A stretch of DNA of 64,000 bases. Source: an uncultured Lentisphaeria bacterium. Lineage in GTDB: Bacteria > Fidelibacterota > UBA8477 > JABMPR01. Shown one piece after another: positions 27,042 through 34,047 of this stretch. The stretch lies in assembly GCA_964578155.1 (NCBI GenBank), contig CAZOBQ010000001.1, forward strand, positions 66,670 to 130,669. The letters are read 5' to 3'. The notes under the pieces are model-generated. The model saw only the letters and a program-made list of their open reading frames with translations, was not told the origin of the DNA and ran no database searches. The position numbers and the translations under genes are program-made. The number at the start of each line of letters is the position of its first letter. The stretch's first letter is position 1.

Positions 27042-29057
27042 TTAATACCCCAACAGTCTTTCGGCTGCTTGACGAATATCTTCAGTCTGGGGTAATACCT
27101 CATCTTCCAGATCCCAGTTAAAGGGAACAGGACTGTCTTTTGCGGCAACCCTCAACACGGGACCGTCCAGCAGTTCAAAAAATTCTTCTGCAATAATGGC
27201 GGCAATTTCTGCACCTGGACCGGCTGTCAACGTGTCTTCATAGGCTACAATGACTTTGTTAGTCTTTTGAAGAGAATTTCCTATTGTTGCTTTATCCAAC
27301 GGAGCCAGGGTTCGAAGATCAATTACCTCGATGGAGGCGCCGTGAGTTTTCTCTAAGGTTTTAGCTGCCTCAACAGCTTTATGCACCATCATACCATAGG
27401 TGACAATGGTCAGGTCATGGCCTTCTCTGGCAATGGCGGCCTGACCAAAGGGAAGCAAATAATCCTCATCTGGTTCAGGTCGTTTTGCAAAACCCTGACG
27501 ATACATTCCCTTGTGCTCTAAAAAGAGAACCGGGTCATCAATACGGCAAGCGTATTTCAGTAAACCTTTCGCATCGGCTGCATTTGAGGGATAGGCGATA
27601 TGAATCCCCGGTAAATGCATAAAAAAGCCTTCTATGCTCTGGCTGTGACACAAACCTCCGTGAATATAGCCACCCACAGGAACTCGCATGACCACCGGTG
27701 CCGTAAACGCATTGTTACTACGATAACGCATGGTTGCTACTTCGTTGCGGATCTGCATCATGGCAGTCCAGATATAATCTCCAAACTGGATCTCAACCAC
27801 GGGCTTTAAACCTGCAACCGCAGCTCCTACAGCTGTCCCAACAATGGAGGCCTCAGCCAGAGGTGAACTAAAGACGCGATCTGGACCATAAACCGTCGAT
27901 AATTGTTTGGTTGCGGTAAAAACGCCACCCTTGCCATCAGCTACATCCTGGCCATAAATGATCATCTTGTCATTGCGGGCCATTTCCTCATGAAGAGCAT
28001 GGTTAATAGCATCAACAATAACAATATCATCACCTCTTGTTTTAGGCTCTGGTGATTCTATCTGCAATACCGTTTCATTGACCACATGAGTTATGGCTTC
28101 AGATTTATCAGGAAAAGGTGCTTTTTGAGTTTTGTCTGCCACATCATCCACGGCCTGAACCACATCATCCCAAATTTGTCTAAACTCGTCAGCTGTGATA
28201 ACTCCGTCATCCTCACATAGCTTTTTGAATTTTTCCAAAGGATCTCTTTTTTGGTCTTCAGCCAGATCTTCTGCTTCTCGGTACTTACGATGATCATCTG
28301 ATGAGGAGTGTGGCAATAAGCGAACAACATTGGAAACAACAATGGCAGGTCCATCGCCTCTTCGTACACTTGAGATCGCTTTTCTAAATGTTTTCTGGGC
28401 GGTAAAGATGTCCGTACCATCAGTTTCAAGGCGATTCAAATTATGGTAACCGCCCACCATGTCAAAAACAGAACCTTCCGCCATTTGTGAGGCTTTGGGA
28501 AGGGAGATGGCAAACCCGTTGTCCTCTATATGGAAAAGCACGGGGAGTTTATCCCGGCTGGCCCAGTTTAAGGCTTCATGAAATTCACCCTGACTGGTAG
28601 TTCCTTCTCCTGAAGAGACATAAACAATGGCGCCTTCTCCGGCTACTTTGGCCGCCATGGCTGTACCAACTGCTTGAAGGTATTGCGTTCCGGTAGGGCT
28701 GGATTGGGAAACGATATTTAAGGCTTTGCTCCCATAATGTTGAGGCATTTGACGACCGCCAGAGCTTGGATCATCGCGTTTTGCCAGAAATCCAAGAAAG
28801 ATCTCATCAACAGTGGCTCCAAGACCAAGCATGAGTGCTTGATCGCGATAATATGGGTAAGCCCAATCAAAGCCAGGTTTCATATTGAGAGCACAGGCAA
28901 GTTGTGCTCCTTCATGGCCTGCAGCACCTATATGGAAAAATGATTTTCCCTGCCTGAGCAAGGTCAACATTTTTTCATCCATACGCCGAGAAGTAGCCAT
29001 CAACCTAAAAATACTTAGTAGGTGTTCTCTTTTATAGCCTTTAAACGTGTCTGACAC
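27042..29057 (-). CDS. 2-oxoacid dehydrogenase E1 component, fused alpha+beta subunits
   Basis: 671 aa. The N-half carries a TPP-binding alpha-subunit pattern (GEGTTSQGEFHEALN), and the C-half is a transketolase-like beta subunit (IIYGQDVADGKGGVF...PLAEASIVG). Confidence 0.9.
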   Translation of the reverse strand: MSDTFKGYKREHLLSIFRLMATSRRMDEKMLTLLRQGKSFFHIGAAGHEGAQLACALNMKPGFDWAYPYYRDQALMLGLGATVDEIFLGFLAKRDDPSSGGRQMPQHYGSKALNIVSQSSPTGTQYLQAVGTAMAAKVAGEGAIVYVSSGEGTTSQGEFHEALNWASRDKLPVLFHIEDNGFAISLPKASQMAEGSVFDMVGGYHNLNRLETDGTDIFTAQKTFRKAISSVRRGDGPAIVVSNVVRLLPHSSSDDHRKYREAEDLAEDQKRDPLEKFKKLCEDDGVITADEFRQIWDDVVQAVDDVADKTQKAPFPDKSEAITHVVNETVLQIESPEPKTRGDDIVIVDAINHALHEEMARNDKMIIYGQDVADGKGGVFTATKQLSTVYGPDRVFSSPLAEASIVGTAVGAAVAGLKPVVEIQFGDYIWTAMMQIRNEVATMRYRSNNAFTAPVVMRVPVGGYIHGGLCHSQSIEGFFMHLPGIHIAYPSNAADAKGLLKYACRIDDPVLFLEHKGMYRQGFAKRPEPDEDYLLPFGQAAIAREGHDLTIVTYGMMVHKAVEAAKTLEKTHGASIEVIDLRTLAPLDKATIGNSLQKTNKVIVAYEDTLTAGPGAEIAAIIAEEFFELLDGPVLRVAAKDSPVPFNWDLEDEVLPQTEDIRQAAERLLGY

Positions 29058-31690: not shown

Positions 31691-32443
31691 TTATAATACC
31701 AGGCGGGGATTTGAATCCCCGCCTGGATTTTCATTTAAAAATGAACGTAATTCTTCGAGTTTCTCAATGGTCCCGATGTCAATCCAATAGGCACCCTTCA
31801 TGGAAAAAGCTTCAATGCGTTTGCCTTTTTGAGCTGCTTGTAGATAGACTGGAATCGTTGAAAATTTTTGCTCAAAACCGCCCATGTGGCCGAATATCTC
31901 AGAGGATATGATTTGAACAGAATTAAAGGCTTGAAGATGATAATCTACATGACCCCATGATATCTCTTCACCTGTTGTCTGGTTTTCCCAACCACACAAC
32001 AAGTCTTGTTCATTGAATCTGAAATAGCGAGACGTTTTTCTGTCTGACACTGCCAAAGTTGCCAGGTTCTTGTTTCTTTTATGGATCTCAATCATAACGT
32101 TTAAATCAAAATCAGTAAAGACGTCGGAATTACACACCACAAAAGTCTCTTCGTTTATAAAGTGCTCTTTTGCTTTCATTAGGCCGCCGCCAGTCTCCAG
32201 GAGCTCTTCTTCTAAAGAGATGTGAACCTCAACCCCAAAATCCCGCTGCGCAATAAAATCAACAACCTGATTTGCCAAATGGTGAACATTGACAATTATG
32301 GTGTTAACACCCGCCTTTTTCAGATAAAGGATATTGTGTTCAAGAAGGGTTTTCGAGCCTGCCTTAACAAGGCATTTTGGTAATGTGTTGGTCAGGGGCT
32401 GTAAACGAGTTCCTTTTCCTGCCGCGAAGAGCATGGCTTTCAT
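31691..32443 (-). CDS. Sugar-1-phosphate nucleotidyltransferase, MurU-like
   Basis: MKAMLFAAGKGTRLQPLTNTLPKCLV N-terminal NTP-transferase motif, adjacent to an AmgK-like kinase. The ORF-track 5' extension (to 32494) runs into a REP-like repeat, so I prefer the start at 32443. Confidence 0.7.
   Translation of the reverse strand: MKAMLFAAGKGTRLQPLTNTLPKCLVKAGSKTLLEHNILYLKKAGVNTIIVNVHHLANQVVDFIAQRDFGVEVHISLEEELLETGGGLMKAKEHFINEETFVVCNSDVFTDFDLNVMIEIHKRNKNLATLAVSDRKTSRYFRFNEQDLLCGWENQTTGEEISWGHVDYHLQAFNSVQIISSEIFGHMGGFEQKFSTIPVYLQAAQKGKRIEAFSMKGAYWIDIGTIEKLEELRSFLNENPGGDSNPRLVL
31699..31726. other. Perfect 11-bp GC-rich inverted repeat (ccaggcgggga-tttgaa-tccccgcctgg)
   Basis: Read directly from the sequence. 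It overlaps the last codons of the murU-like ORF and lies 22 nt upstream of the lpd ATG. Flanks are A/T-rich on both sides. Confidence 0.6.
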
Positions 32444-32488
32444 ATTGAAACCACTAGGATATGTCTTTTCTATACAACTGTAAGTCTC

Positions 32489-32516
32489 CGTCATCCTGAG
32501 CTACGTCGAAGGATAG
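32489..32516 (+). repeat. REP-like unit, short form
   Basis: cgtcatcctgagctacgtcgaaggatag. Confidence 0.7.
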
Positions 32517-32536
32517 ACACACAATAATACATTGGA

Positions 32537-32587
32537 GATGCTTCGACCTTTCGGCTTCGCTCAAGACAGGCTTGCTCAGCATGACAC
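32537..32587 (-). repeat. REP-like unit, long form, reverse orientation
   Basis: The reverse complement gtcatgctgagcaagcctgtcttgagcgaagccgaaaggtcgaagcatc matches the long copy at 2765..2816 at roughly 85% of positions by eye. Confidence 0.7.
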
Positions 32588-32625
32588 AAACCTATTATTT
32601 ACAGACATAACCGACATCCCGTTCA

Positions 32626-34047
32626 TTATTTATCAACAAGTTCTCTGTGATGTAACACGACATCAACATCATGAGTTTCTCTCAGGTGGGCAGCCAGTCG
32701 GTTGGCAGAATGTACTGATCTATGTTGTCCTCCAGTACAGCCAAAACTTATCATGAGATCCGTGAAATTCTGTTCTTCATAACTATTAACAGCCGCATCA
32801 ACCATGCTGAACATCCTTTTAAGCCACCTATCCATGTCTGGCTTGTCTGCAAACCAATCAATCACTTCCTGGTCATTCGCAGAGAGTTGTTTGTAGGCAA
32901 TCTCTCTTCCCGGGTTAGGCAAAAACCGACAATCGAAGACAAAGCCCCCACCATGACCACGTTCATCAACAGGAACGCCGCGTTTATATGAAAAACTAGT
33001 AATCCGAATTTTGAGCTGCAAATTGGCCTTCCCGAACTCACGCAAGGCGGAGGATTGAATAAGTTGAGTGAAAACATCCATCATTACGGGGATTTCAATA
33101 GGTAGATCAACTTTTCTAACCAGATATTCAAGATTTTGAATCGCATAGGGAATGCTCTGCAAGAAGTGGGTCTTGCGCTCATAGAATCCACGATATCCAT
33201 AAGCGCCCATAGCTTGCATAATGCGGATAAGGACAAAAGCGTAATAATGTTTTGTAAAGACCTCTTTATCAATGGGAACAAGTTTTCCAACCGCGTCAAG
33301 ATATTTATTTAACAAATGTTCTCTTACTTCGAAAGGCAGGTCTGCCTTCGCATCAAAAAGAAGGGATGCTATATCGTACTGCAGGGCTCCTTGACGACCG
33401 CCTTGATAGTCAATAAACCAGGGTTCTCCATCTTTTAGCATGATGTTCCGAGATTGAAAATCACGATATAGAAAATGTTGACCATCAGCCTCTAAAAGAA
33501 AGGCCGTGAAGGTCTGAAAATCTGCTTCCAGCTTTTGCTCATTAAATCGAACATGAGCCAATTTCAAAAAGTAGTATTTGAAGTAATTCAAATCCCACAT
33601 CATGGATTGACGATCAAAACTATGGTGGGGATATGACTTTGAATAGTCCAGTCCCTGACCGCCCTTGATCTGAAATTCCGGTAAACGCTCCACCACCTTT
33701 TCGTAGGCTTTAAGCAATTCATCCGGGAATTCTTTTTTCCCTTTACGAACTCGCAACAAATAGTCAAACAGGGTTTCGTTTCCCAGGTCCTGCTGTAGAT
33801 AGATATTATCATCCAGTTTTTCCGCGAAGATCTCTGGAACAGCTAAGCCTTTGCTTTTGAAATGTTTTGAAAAGGAGATAAAGGCTTCGTTCTCAAGGCG
33901 GTCTTGGTTCTTGGAGCCAATAATTGATCTGTTTGAGTTCGTGATCCTAAAATACTCACGGTTTGATCCGTGGGCTGCCAGAGGTGTAAGGTCTGTTACC
34001 TCTTCTTTAAAATGATCTTTAAATAGCTTTTTTAGCTTCTCGGGCAT
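32626..34047 (-). CDS. AmgK-like anomeric MurNAc/GlcNAc kinase (APH fold) fused to a RapZ C-terminal domain
   Basis: N-terminal part: GSNREYFRI, YRDFQSRNIML, WFIDYQGGRQGALQYDIASLLFDAK (APH/AmgK catalytic pattern). C-terminal ~140 aa: SFSYKRGVPVD...FVFDCRFLPNP...SFGCTGGQHRSV, which is the RapZ/YvcJ C-domain signature. Confidence 0.7.
   Translation of the reverse strand: MPEKLKKLFKDHFKEEVTDLTPLAAHGSNREYFRITNSNRSIIGSKNQDRLENEAFISFSKHFKSKGLAVPEIFAEKLDDNIYLQQDLGNETLFDYLLRVRKGKKEFPDELLKAYEKVVERLPEFQIKGGQGLDYSKSYPHHSFDRQSMMWDLNYFKYYFLKLAHVRFNEQKLEADFQTFTAFLLEADGQHFLYRDFQSRNIMLKDGEPWFIDYQGGRQGALQYDIASLLFDAKADLPFEVREHLLNKYLDAVGKLVPIDKEVFTKHYYAFVLIRIMQAMGAYGYRGFYERKTHFLQSIPYAIQNLEYLVRKVDLPIEIPVMMDVFTQLIQSSALREFGKANLQLKIRITSFSYKRGVPVDERGHGGGFVFDCRFLPNPGREIAYKQLSANDQEVIDWFADKPDMDRWLKRMFSMVDAAVNSYEEQNFTDLMISFGCTGGQHRSVHSANRLAAHLRETHDVDVVLHHRELVDK

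Follow-up and report, generated by a model that had tools for sequence, protein, structure and literature searches.

The window analysed here, a 64,000-nt stretch of DNA from a Marinisomatota (Marine Group A) bacterium, carries a gene for an AmgK-like kinase joined to a RapZ-type C-terminal domain (RapZ_C), followed directly on the same strand by a gene for a MurU-like uridylyltransferase (Table 1). The kinase–RapZ_C gene is present in a single copy in the genome, and tblastn gave no paralogue.

Table 1. Features of the kinase–RapZ_C/murU-like locus; positions are those of the window.
Feature	Position	Strand	Basis
AmgK-like kinase + RapZ C-terminal domain, 473-aa ORF	32626..34047	(-)	Pfam, NCBIfam, PDB, AlphaFold2, Foldseek
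Kinase part, residues 1-334	33046..34047	(-)	PF01636, AmgK models, 3csv by sequence and fold
Catalytic loop Y-R-D196-F-Q-S-R-N201 and metal-binding D213 (IDYQGG)	33409..33462	(-)	Brenner-type kinase motifs
RapZ-type C-terminal domain, residues 335-473	32629..33045	(-)	PF22740, profile search, model vs 5o5s
G364-H-G-G-G368, 5-residue insertion vs E. coli RapZ	32944..32958	(-)	Pairwise and profile alignments
Phosphate-binding loop C437-T-G-G-Q-H-R-S444 (Cys-x5-Arg-Ser)	32716..32739	(-)	Equivalent to RapZ C247-S254
49-nt dispersed repeat in spacer between kinase–RapZ_C and murU-like genes	32535..32583	(-)	
MurU-like sugar-1-phosphate uridylyltransferase, listed ORF 267 aa	31691..32494	(-)	PF00483, MurU model NF045761
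GC-rich hairpin, 12-bp stem, over last murU-like codons, ahead of lpdA start	31699..31726	.	

An earlier note on this DNA had read the 473-aa ORF as an AmgK-like kinase in which an APH fold stands in for the P-loop domain of RapZ, and we find that each part of this description holds. Pfam places an APH domain (PF01636) at residues 20-250 (E = 2.6e-10) and RapZ_C (PF22740) at residues 345-470 (E = 1.6e-34; 119 bits, cut-off 27), and the motifs quoted in that note are all present and vary little or not at all among 51 homologues. AmgK is the nearest curated kinase family: the top NCBIfam kinase models are two AmgK equivalogs, NF045759 and NF045698 (E = 1.5e-18 and 8.9e-15), although the kinase scores far below their cut-offs (67 bits vs 550 and 55 bits vs 500, respectively). 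The NCBIfam RapZ model NF003828 aligns over its C-terminal half alone (positions 150-278), and sequence matches in the PDB are to the APH protein 3csv over residues 20-303 and to E. coli RapZ over residues 306-470. The P-loop domain PF03668 is absent from the whole genome by Pfam profile search, as is any separate full-length rapZ or second RapZ_C, such that the APH kinase occupies the place of the missing domain.

Structure prediction returns the same picture. The AlphaFold2 model of the full-length protein (pLDDT 91, pTM 0.84) has 3csv as its best Foldseek match, and the C-domain modelled alone (pLDDT 91) superimposes on RapZ (5o5s) with a target-normalised TM-score of 0.90 and an rmsd of 1.9 Å, which upholds its RapZ-like character; a profile built on 26 family C-domains, the window's first, finds no PDB match besides RapZ (E = 4e-26). 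The kinase part carries a GSNREYFRI motif in its N-terminal region, its C-lobe and linker are helical (helices 261-336), and its catalytic motifs align with HRDFHAQN and IDFQD of 3csv, with D196, N201 and D213 invariant among the 51 homologues. In the C-domain, the Cys-x5-Arg-Ser loop lies between a strand (430-437) and a helix (443-458) of the model and is invariant in the same homologues save for Q441, conserved at ≥90%; D372 and R374 are likewise invariant across phyla. The glycine-rich insertion immediately precedes the invariant VFDCR.LPNPG segment, and is itself invariant at G364 and G366-G368, with H365 conserved at ≥90%.

The pocket of RapZ, as defined in PMC9841335 and PMC5737377, is largely recognisable in the fusion family, with C247, T248, G249, H252 and R253 corresponding to the invariant C437, T438, G439, H442 and R443, and with H190 replaced by an invariant Gly. 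GlcN6P is bound by the RapZ C-domain, with the Cys-x5-Arg pocket as the proposed site (PMC9841335). The earlier note had taken both GlcN6P and UDP-GlcNAc binding as precedents for a metabolite-sensing C-domain; the GlcN6P/phosphate pocket does transfer to the fusion protein, but the UDP-GlcNAc site does not. UDP-GlcNAc binding by YvcJ is abolished in the Walker-A mutant K22A (PMC7525490), and UDP-GlcNAc binding is also described for the isolated N-terminal domain of M. tuberculosis Rv1421 (PMC11229554), so the known UDP-sugar site belongs to the very domain that is missing here. The same note's "GlmR/YvcJ" also needs correcting, as GlmR is YvcK, not YvcJ.

RapZ_C is a homologue of the portion of RapZ that binds RNA, and NCBI names some family members 'RNase adapter RapZ', which might suggest that the domain acts as in E. 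coli, where amino-sugar synthesis is controlled by binding a small RNA and delivering it to a ribonuclease. We regard this as extremely improbable. Of seven basic residues along the RNA path of RapZ, four are replaced (K194, R211, R238 and K251 by A, D, F and Q), there is no basic tail at the C-terminus, and the pI of the C-domain is 6.7 vs 9.6 for that of E. coli; YvcJ, which is not known to bind RNA, also lacks the tail (PMC7525490). Neighbour analysis further finds that RapZ_C travels with MurU and not with RNA-processing genes.

The listed 267-aa partner ORF carries an NTP_transferase domain (PF00483, E = 2.8e-25) with an N-terminal G-x-G-T-R motif (AAGKGTRL), and the MurU model NF045761 ranks first of 40 NCBIfam models (E = 1e-40), at 140 bits against an equivalog cut-off of 250. 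Since the NTP_transferase domain begins at M18 (position 32443), translation probably starts there, which would give a product of 250 aa. The repeat in the spacer upstream occurs in five copies in the genome, one of them, on contig C2, identical; in two close relatives (L002 and L003) the same spacer is 9-10 nt long. Pairing with MurU, as the earlier note had proposed, extends well beyond this genome: in 62 of 80 loci, drawn from many phyla, the next gene downstream on the same strand is a murU orthologue. Unbiased neighbour clustering revealed no conserved neighbour besides murU, and a third conserved neighbour (a HAD phosphatase or a transporter) was rejected, as everything else in the clustering was either an antisense shadow ORF or a lineage-limited gene.

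The APH + RapZ_C architecture, which that note had been unable to place as catalogued or not, proves to be widespread, with more than 8000 protein clusters at 90% identity from Marinisomatota, Bacteroidota, Calditrichota, Elusimicrobiota and Acidobacteriota, and both domains are already labelled by Pfam and NCBI. A full-length relative is encoded by at least 591 species genomes, and the identical 473-aa protein is present on 26 contigs; these numbers rule out an assembly chimera. The three activities also occur in one polypeptide, as APH + RapZ_C + NTP_transferase triple fusions (P0204, P0262 and P0265) in which RapZ_C sits between kinase and MurU; one of these is found on five contigs, and the two places shown are separate assemblies. 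RapZ_C is also found as a stand-alone protein (P0124 and P0139) and in a two-domain RapZ_C-MurU protein (P0178). Among the papers searched, none mentions AmgK together with RapZ, and none of those with a RapZ_C-type term deals with the kinase–RapZ_C fusion, as judged by title and abstract.

What sets the host apart is the loss of the usual entry into peptidoglycan synthesis. A tblastn search of this MAG, which is 87% complete, with E. coli MurA and MurB gives no match, while the same method detects MurC, MurD, MurE, MurF, MraY, MurG, FtsW, FtsI and Ddl; the sole match to the MurA model TIGR01072 (105 bits, cut-off 393) is probably the related enzyme AroA. Both MurA and MurB are missing from 20 of the 21 genus genomes sampled, the window's included, and this loss alongside the fusion, in the genome and in the genus, is what is new here. 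In 151 genomes of the phylum, the distribution of the fusion is nearly complementary to that of MurA/MurB (fusion only, 73; MurA/MurB only, 53; both, 15; neither, 10), with MurC in 149, although the split tracks families and the 151 genomes are thus not independent events. Given that MurA and MurB are absent, that MurC to MurF are kept and that the complementarity across the phylum is nearly complete, no source of UDP-MurNAc other than the kinase–RapZ_C and MurU pair can be recognised in this genome. The earlier note had assigned the pair to the AmgK-MurU salvage route; the pairing stands, but with MurA and MurB absent the route is the only recognisable one and not an accessory.

This sole-source role fits published descriptions of muropeptide dependence in Marine Group A. 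According to PMC11652737, citing Katayama 2024, the Marine Group A isolate IA91 is unable to make peptidoglycan and subsists on muropeptides, and reliance on exogenous muropeptides is dated back to the ancestors of the phylum. The window's genome also encodes an AmpG-like transporter, two NagZ, AnmK and MurQ; MurQ was considered as an indicator of MurA loss and rejected, being present in 126 of the 151 genomes regardless of MurA.

Our best explanation of the locus as a whole, to which we assign a probability of roughly 0.5, is a MurNAc salvage kinase carrying a phospho-amino-sugar-sensing RapZ_C, together with MurU, with the C-domain acting as a dedicated third module of the pathway and not as an RNA adaptor. 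Imported peptidoglycan fragments would feed the pathway, the AmgK-type kinase would phosphorylate scavenged MurNAc, and perhaps GlcNAc, at C1, and the MurU-type uridylyltransferase would then form UDP-MurNAc. The RapZ_C pocket would bind a phosphorylated amino sugar (MurNAc-6-P, GlcNAc-6-P, GlcN-6-P or MurNAc-1-P) and tune the kinase allosterically, thereby setting the split between wall building through AmgK and MurU and the burning of MurNAc through MurQ. The domains and their fold, the conserved residues, the pairing of the two genes, the triple fusions and the lack of MurA and MurB are observed; we infer the sugar substrate, the pocket ligand and the regulatory effect. Judged separately, the supply of UDP-MurNAc by kinase and MurU is very probable on the genomic evidence, while the sensor role of the C-domain is tentative and falls somewhat short of even odds.

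Assignment of the substrate rests on context and not on orthology, because both the AmgK and the MurU scores lie far below the equivalog cut-offs. These low scores, and the versatility of APH-fold anomeric kinases and small nucleotidyltransferases, would also suit a pair that acts on another sugar (GlcNAc, GalNAc or another hexosamine 1-phosphate) for a surface glycan. We consider that very improbable, as genomes that lack MurA/MurB and keep MurC need UDP-MurNAc, for which the cassette, nearly complementary to MurA/MurB, is the sole candidate, and as the top-scoring curated families are still AmgK and MurU.

The C-domain of the MurNAc salvage kinase might be catalytic instead of sensory. Its Cys-x5-Arg loop could dephosphorylate MurNAc-6-P, the product of AnmK, as Pseudomonas MupP does, or move the phosphate from C6 to C1, such that a single three-module line of phosphatase, kinase and uridylyltransferase would lead from MurNAc-6-P to UDP-MurNAc, and the RapZ C-terminal fold would at root be an amino-sugar salvage enzyme. 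We hold this to be possible though unlikely. The strand, C-x5-R-S loop and helix resemble a phosphate cradle, C437, H442, R443, S444, D372 and R374 are invariant across phyla, and such near-invariant Cys, His, Arg, Ser and Asp residues seem to fit an active site better than an allosteric one. Kinase, RapZ_C and MurU parallel the trio AmgK, MupP and MurU; triple fusions and stand-alone forms both occur, as is common for pathway enzymes, and the stand-alone RapZ_C and RapZ_C-MurU proteins would favour catalysis over sensing. The genome has AnmK and MurQ, none of its proteins reaches the MupP cut-off, the top HAD protein (C82:1247-1918) scoring 75 bits against 359 (NF009696), and no HAD phosphatase is conserved beside the cassette. 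From the RapZ literature, C247S is inactive and its authors propose a possible catalytic role for the thiol, crystals grown with GlcN6P contain density resembling a chemically transformed product (both PMC9841335), and phosphatase activity is reported for YvcJ (PMC7525490, citing Luciano 2009).

Against catalysis, no RapZ_C domain is known to turn over a substrate, and RapZ acts as a sensor that binds GlcN6P. Foldseek of the C-domain model against the PDB returns RapZ only, with no PTP, LMW-PTP, ArsC or rhodanese and all remaining matches at E >0.5, and kinship by fold with PTP-type phosphatases is thus rejected. A MupP search of the 151 phylum genomes at E ≤ 1e-35 yields no match, but yields none in control genomes either; a Gph-like HAD phosphatase in the window's genome could perform the MupP step, and free MurNAc released by a muramidase would require no phosphatase at all. 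Were the domain an enzyme, enterobacterial RapZ would have put an ancient active site to late new use as an RNA adaptor, and large Marinisomatota clades would build their walls from the peptidoglycan of others via a single enzyme line.

RapZ_C could also be structural, a module that di- or tetramerises the kinase, perhaps docks MurU and channels MurNAc-1-P, its pocket holding the sugar phosphate in transit. The RapZ C-domain makes homotypic dimers inside the tetramer (PMC5737377, PMC9841335), the domain lies between kinase and MurU in the triple fusions, and the full-length pTM of 0.84 suggests fixed packing on the kinase in the model. A scaffold, however, would have no use for an invariant pocket of Cys, His, Arg and Ser, and the published accounts consulted treat AmgK and MurU of proteobacteria as separate proteins (AmgK models span 324-360 positions) and mention no RapZ_C; we judge this role improbable.

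For the biochemical role of the RapZ/YvcJ C-domain outside enterobacteria, the published hints are a catalytic thiol and chemically altered GlcN6P in the pocket. The fusion family presents RapZ_C stripped of its RNA features and tied, sometimes covalently, to two enzymes of one short pathway, which turns the question of its role into an ordinary enzyme and ligand-binding assay. As this lineage seems to have no way to UDP-MurNAc other than the cassette, the cassette is likely essential in the host and would mark genomes of peptidoglycan scavengers within a major ocean phylum. For these fusion proteins, the database name 'RNase adapter RapZ' is misleading.

A close known parallel is the anabolic AmgK-MurU recycling of MurNAc, with MupP, in Pseudomonas putida and P. 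aeruginosa, shown also in Caulobacter and Legionella. In both systems an APH-fold anomeric kinase adjoins a small MurU-type uridylyltransferase, AmgK and MurU being the top-scoring curated families for the window's pair, and the Pseudomonas route bypasses MurA and MurB (PMC8054146, PMC13046382). Unlike Pseudomonas AmgK, the window's kinase has an additional 140-aa RapZ-type domain, both window proteins fall far under the equivalog cut-offs with no MupP equivalog found, and the route is the only recognisable source of UDP-MurNAc rather than a bypass. In this last respect the host resembles, by published description, the MurNAc auxotroph Tannerella forsythia, likewise of the FCB group, which has no MurA/MurB and depends on AmgK and MurU (PMC7670621, PMC5790795); these are reported to replace MurA/MurB (PMC7670621, PMC10941766), and the T. 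forsythia enzymes function in E. coli (PMC10941766). The window's genome encodes an AnmK, in contrast to T. forsythia, for which none is predicted (PMC7670621).

Fidelibacter multiformis IA91 belongs to the same broad lineage as the window's organism; it is described as also unable to make D-Ala, D-Glu or DAP (PMC11652737), whereas the window's genome retains Ddl and MurC to MurF. The C-domain shares with that of E. coli RapZ (PDB 5o5s, 5o5o, 8b0i) its fold (≈30% identity, target-normalised TM-score 0.90), the C, T, G, H and R residues of the pocket and a link to amino-sugar metabolism. It differs in the absence of a P-loop N-domain and basic tail, in the GHGGG insertion, in the change of H190 to an invariant Gly, of K251 to Gln and of R238 to Phe, and in its partners, which are an APH kinase and MurU here, and small RNAs and RNase E for E. 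coli RapZ.

We confirm the two minus-strand open reading frames proposed in an earlier note, at the same coordinates, and the division of the first into an AmgK-like kinase and a RapZ C-terminal domain, with Pfam APH matching residues 20-250 (E 2.6e-10) and PF22740 (RapZ_C) matching residues 345-470 (E 1.6e-34). Two AmgK models are the sole kinase families of any weight in NCBIfam (E 1.5e-18 and 8.9e-15), and the match to the RapZ equivalog is restricted to the C-terminal half of that model. Among solved structures, 3csv matches the N-terminal part and E. coli RapZ matches residues 306-470; 3csv and RapZ are also the nearest PDB neighbours of a full-length AlphaFold2 model (pLDDT 91, pTM 0.84). 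An isolated model of the C-domain (residues 335-473; pLDDT 91) superimposes on 5o5s with a target-normalised TM-score of 0.90 and an rmsd of 1.9 Å, and a fold search with this domain against the PDB returns nothing apart from RapZ with E below 0.5. The downstream protein is an NTP_transferase for which MurU is the top curated model (E 1e-40); because this domain begins at M18, the true start is probably at 32443.

Features of the kinase/murU locus and its surroundings, in window positions
Feature	Position	Strand	Remark
Kinase/RapZ_C ORF	32626-34047	-	473 aa
49-nt GC-rich dispersed repeat	32535-32583	-	in spacer between kinase gene and murU
MurU-like ORF	31691-32494	-	267 aa
GC-rich hairpin, 12-bp stem	31699-31726		covers final codons of murU-like gene
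671-aa protein, E1_dh + Transket_pyr + Transketolase_C	27042-29057	-	

An assembly artefact is ruled out by the presence of an identical protein on 26 contigs, and the window protein belongs to a very large family. A protein search with the fusion gives at least 8000 matches; among the 120 matches listed, all carry RapZ_C and 119 carry APH, and one is a 320-aa fragment. Full-length relatives, 52-59% identical across the entire length, occur in at least 591 species genomes from Marinisomatota, Calditrichota, Bacteroidota, Ignavibacteriota, Elusimicrobiota, Acidobacteriota and other phyla. Pfam and NCBI already label the domains of this family, some members of which are misnamed 'RNase adapter RapZ' in databases. 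Bacteroides thetaiotaomicron, a control genome, has PF22740 and lacks the RapZ N-domain. The window's genome also lacks the N-domain and its one RapZ_C is that of the window protein, which bears out the suggestion that the P-loop domain has been replaced; a search there for a kinase paralogue found none. RapZ_C is present in 88 of 151 genomes of the phylum, nearly always within ORFs of 471-535 aa. One genome, G070, has the lone canonical-looking RapZ among them (G070:C83:8411-8770; 290-aa ORF, 158 bits) beside the fusion, possibly from contamination or horizontal transfer.

In 62 of 80 fusion-family loci the next gene downstream, on the same strand, is MurU-like, and clustering of all neighbouring ORFs of these loci shows it to be the sole conserved neighbour. 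A library-wide query with the C-domain yields 3209 representatives at E <= 0.001, and the best matches include, by Pfam, triple fusions of APH, RapZ_C and NTP_transferase (722-737 aa), a 387-aa protein of RapZ_C and NTP_transferase, and stand-alone RapZ_C proteins of ~137 aa. One triple fusion occurs on 5 contigs; the two locations listed come from separate assemblies. The MurU pairing, the triple fusions and the other module combinations therefore establish that the RapZ-type domain is a regular third module of the kinase/uridylyltransferase unit. One 718-aa RapZ_C protein (P0190) has a 3'-5' exonuclease domain (DNA_pol_A_exo1) ahead of APH and RapZ_C, which may be a gene-call fusion.

The repeat between the two genes has an identical copy on contig C2 and three diverged copies elsewhere, and in close relatives this spacer is merely ~9 nt. 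The hairpin immediately precedes the likely lpdA start (31677) and has a poor U-tract on the coding strand. The gene of the 671-aa protein, in which the alpha and beta parts of a 2-oxo-acid dehydrogenase E1 component are fused, shares a block with lpdA, lipB and a GAF protein gene directly downstream of murU.

We propose, with a probability of about 0.85, that the kinase makes MurNAc-1-P and that the adjacent MurU-type enzyme would convert it to UDP-MurNAc, the pair being the cell's sole supply; it is very improbable that the two proteins, matched to AmgK and MurU models, act on a different sugar. With annotated E. coli K-12 proteins as tblastn queries, the window's genome gives no match to MurA or MurB, and matches to MurC, MurD, MurE, MurF, MraY, MurG, FtsW, FtsI and Ddl, as well as GlmS, NagB, two NagZ, AnmK and MurQ. 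The last two are confirmed by NCBIfam, which also detects an AmpG-family transporter. Because this genome is merely 87% complete, we extended the MurA/MurB test to the 151 phylum genomes and find true MurA (above the cut-off) in 63, MurB in 67, almost the same set, and MurC in 149. The fusion occurs without MurA/B in 73 genomes, MurA/B without the fusion in 53, both in 15 and neither in 10, six of which are <90% complete. MurA and MurB are missing from 20 of 21 sampled genomes of the window's genus (the window's genome counted), and in two genomes that each consist of a single contig, G017 and G029, the fusion is present and both enzymes are absent. The pattern follows families, seven with the fusion and the remaining 18 without it and with MurA/B, so the small Fisher p value counts lineages, not independent events. 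In the window's organism, UDP-MurNAc seems to have no other source than this pair.

Outside the phylum, fusion and MurA are found together in 42 of 50 genomes, and since they usually coexist there the cassette in general is a salvage route. MurA is undetected in 3 of 5 Calditrichia/Caldithrix fusion genomes (loci L005, L007 and L013) and a few others (L004, L009 and L015), so it may have been lost several times in lineages with the cassette, which seems to have permitted MurA/B loss repeatedly, the window's organism being one case. A separate observation concerns the Marinisomatota genomes having both fusion and MurA/B: murB and murA are adjacent in 10 of these 15 (e.g., G032:C9:99368-101595, G022:C13:9049-11280 and G053:C2:171120-173359), and also in G113, in which no fusion was found. 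MurA in these genomes falls in a lower score class, 393-475 bits, versus 510-572 bits in fusion-less genomes, where murA is far from murB and murB comes after murC. This murB-murA cassette looks re-acquired following ancestral loss.

In E. coli RapZ, H190, T248, G249, H252 and R253 form a pocket, adjacent to C247, in which sulphate or malonate is bound; RNA backbone is also held there, and GlcN6P is proposed to bind at this site (PMC9841335, PMC5737377). The corresponding C437, T438, G439, H442 and R443 are invariant across the fusion family, in a loop that the predicted model places between strand 430-437 and helix 443-458; a purely structural or channelling C-domain is improbable. Unlike E. 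coli RapZ, the family has an invariant Gly at the H190 position and a GHGGG insertion near the pocket; an invariant VFDCR.LPNPG segment is also nearby. In the fusion, four of the seven basic residues of the RapZ RNA path are substituted (K194A, R211D, R238F and K251Q), no basic tail is present, and the predicted pI of the C-domain is 6.7 versus 9.6 for E. coli (6.2 to 9.7 family-wide). Because the pocket residues are invariant while most RNA-path residues and the tail are lost, an RNA-adaptor role is unlikely and a putative phosphate-ligand pocket is conserved.

The earlier interpretation, sensing of amino sugars or UDP-sugars by this domain, is partly supported: domains and MurU pairing stand, and the appeal to UDP-GlcNAc has to be corrected. 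GlmR, which it equated with YvcJ, is YvcK; UDP-GlcNAc binding by YvcJ is abolished in the Walker-A mutant K22A (PMC7525490), and in M. tuberculosis Rv1421 the N-terminal domain binds UDP-GlcNAc in isolation (PMC11229554), which puts the known site in the domain missing from the fusion. We tentatively favour, at somewhat below even odds, a sensor pocket in which binding of a phosphorylated amino sugar would modulate the kinase and so set the division between wall synthesis and MurQ-dependent catabolism; this extends GlcN6P binding, the one function shown for the RapZ C-domain. The other serious reading, somewhat less likely, is enzymatic: the Cys-x5-Arg loop would remove the phosphate of MurNAc-6-P or move it to another position. 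The pocket residues are invariant in the manner of an active site, stand-alone and triple-fusion forms exist, the unit parallels the trio MupP, AmgK and MurU, and the window's genome lacks a MupP equivalog; RapZ C247S is inactive and the GlcN6P density in RapZ appears 'chemically transformed' (PMC9841335), and YvcJ reportedly shows phosphatase activity (PMC7525490). However, the fold is unrelated to known Cys phosphatases, turnover by a RapZ C-domain is without precedent, a MupP census of the 151 phylum genomes gave no hit but lacked a positive control, and a Gph-like HAD phosphatase in the window's genome could perform the MurNAc-6-P step.

We found no paper treating AmgK together with RapZ, and literature retrieved with RapZ_C-type terms in titles and abstracts includes none on a kinase-RapZ_C fusion; the extra domain is for this reason unstudied in the literature found, and the fusion offers a clean experimental handle on what a RapZ C-domain does. 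In the Marinisomatota lineage of the window, the cassette is a marker of, and probably the basis for, dependence on the cell walls of other bacteria. The auxotrophy itself is already published, given the reports on T. forsythia and on IA91, the first Marine Group A isolate, which is unable to synthesise peptidoglycan and feeds on muropeptides (PMC11652737); the link of this auxotrophy to a kinase/RapZ_C/MurU three-module enzyme is, as far as could be seen, unpublished. T. forsythia AmgK/MurU reportedly gives E. coli a more efficient conversion of MurNAc into UDP-MurNAc than the P. putida enzymes do (PMC10941766), and, speculatively, a RapZ domain on the T. forsythia kinase that removes the MurP-added 6-phosphate would explain this edge. 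T. forsythia lacks MurA and MurB, as does the window's genome, and AmgK and MurU are the reported substitute (PMC7670621, PMC5790795).
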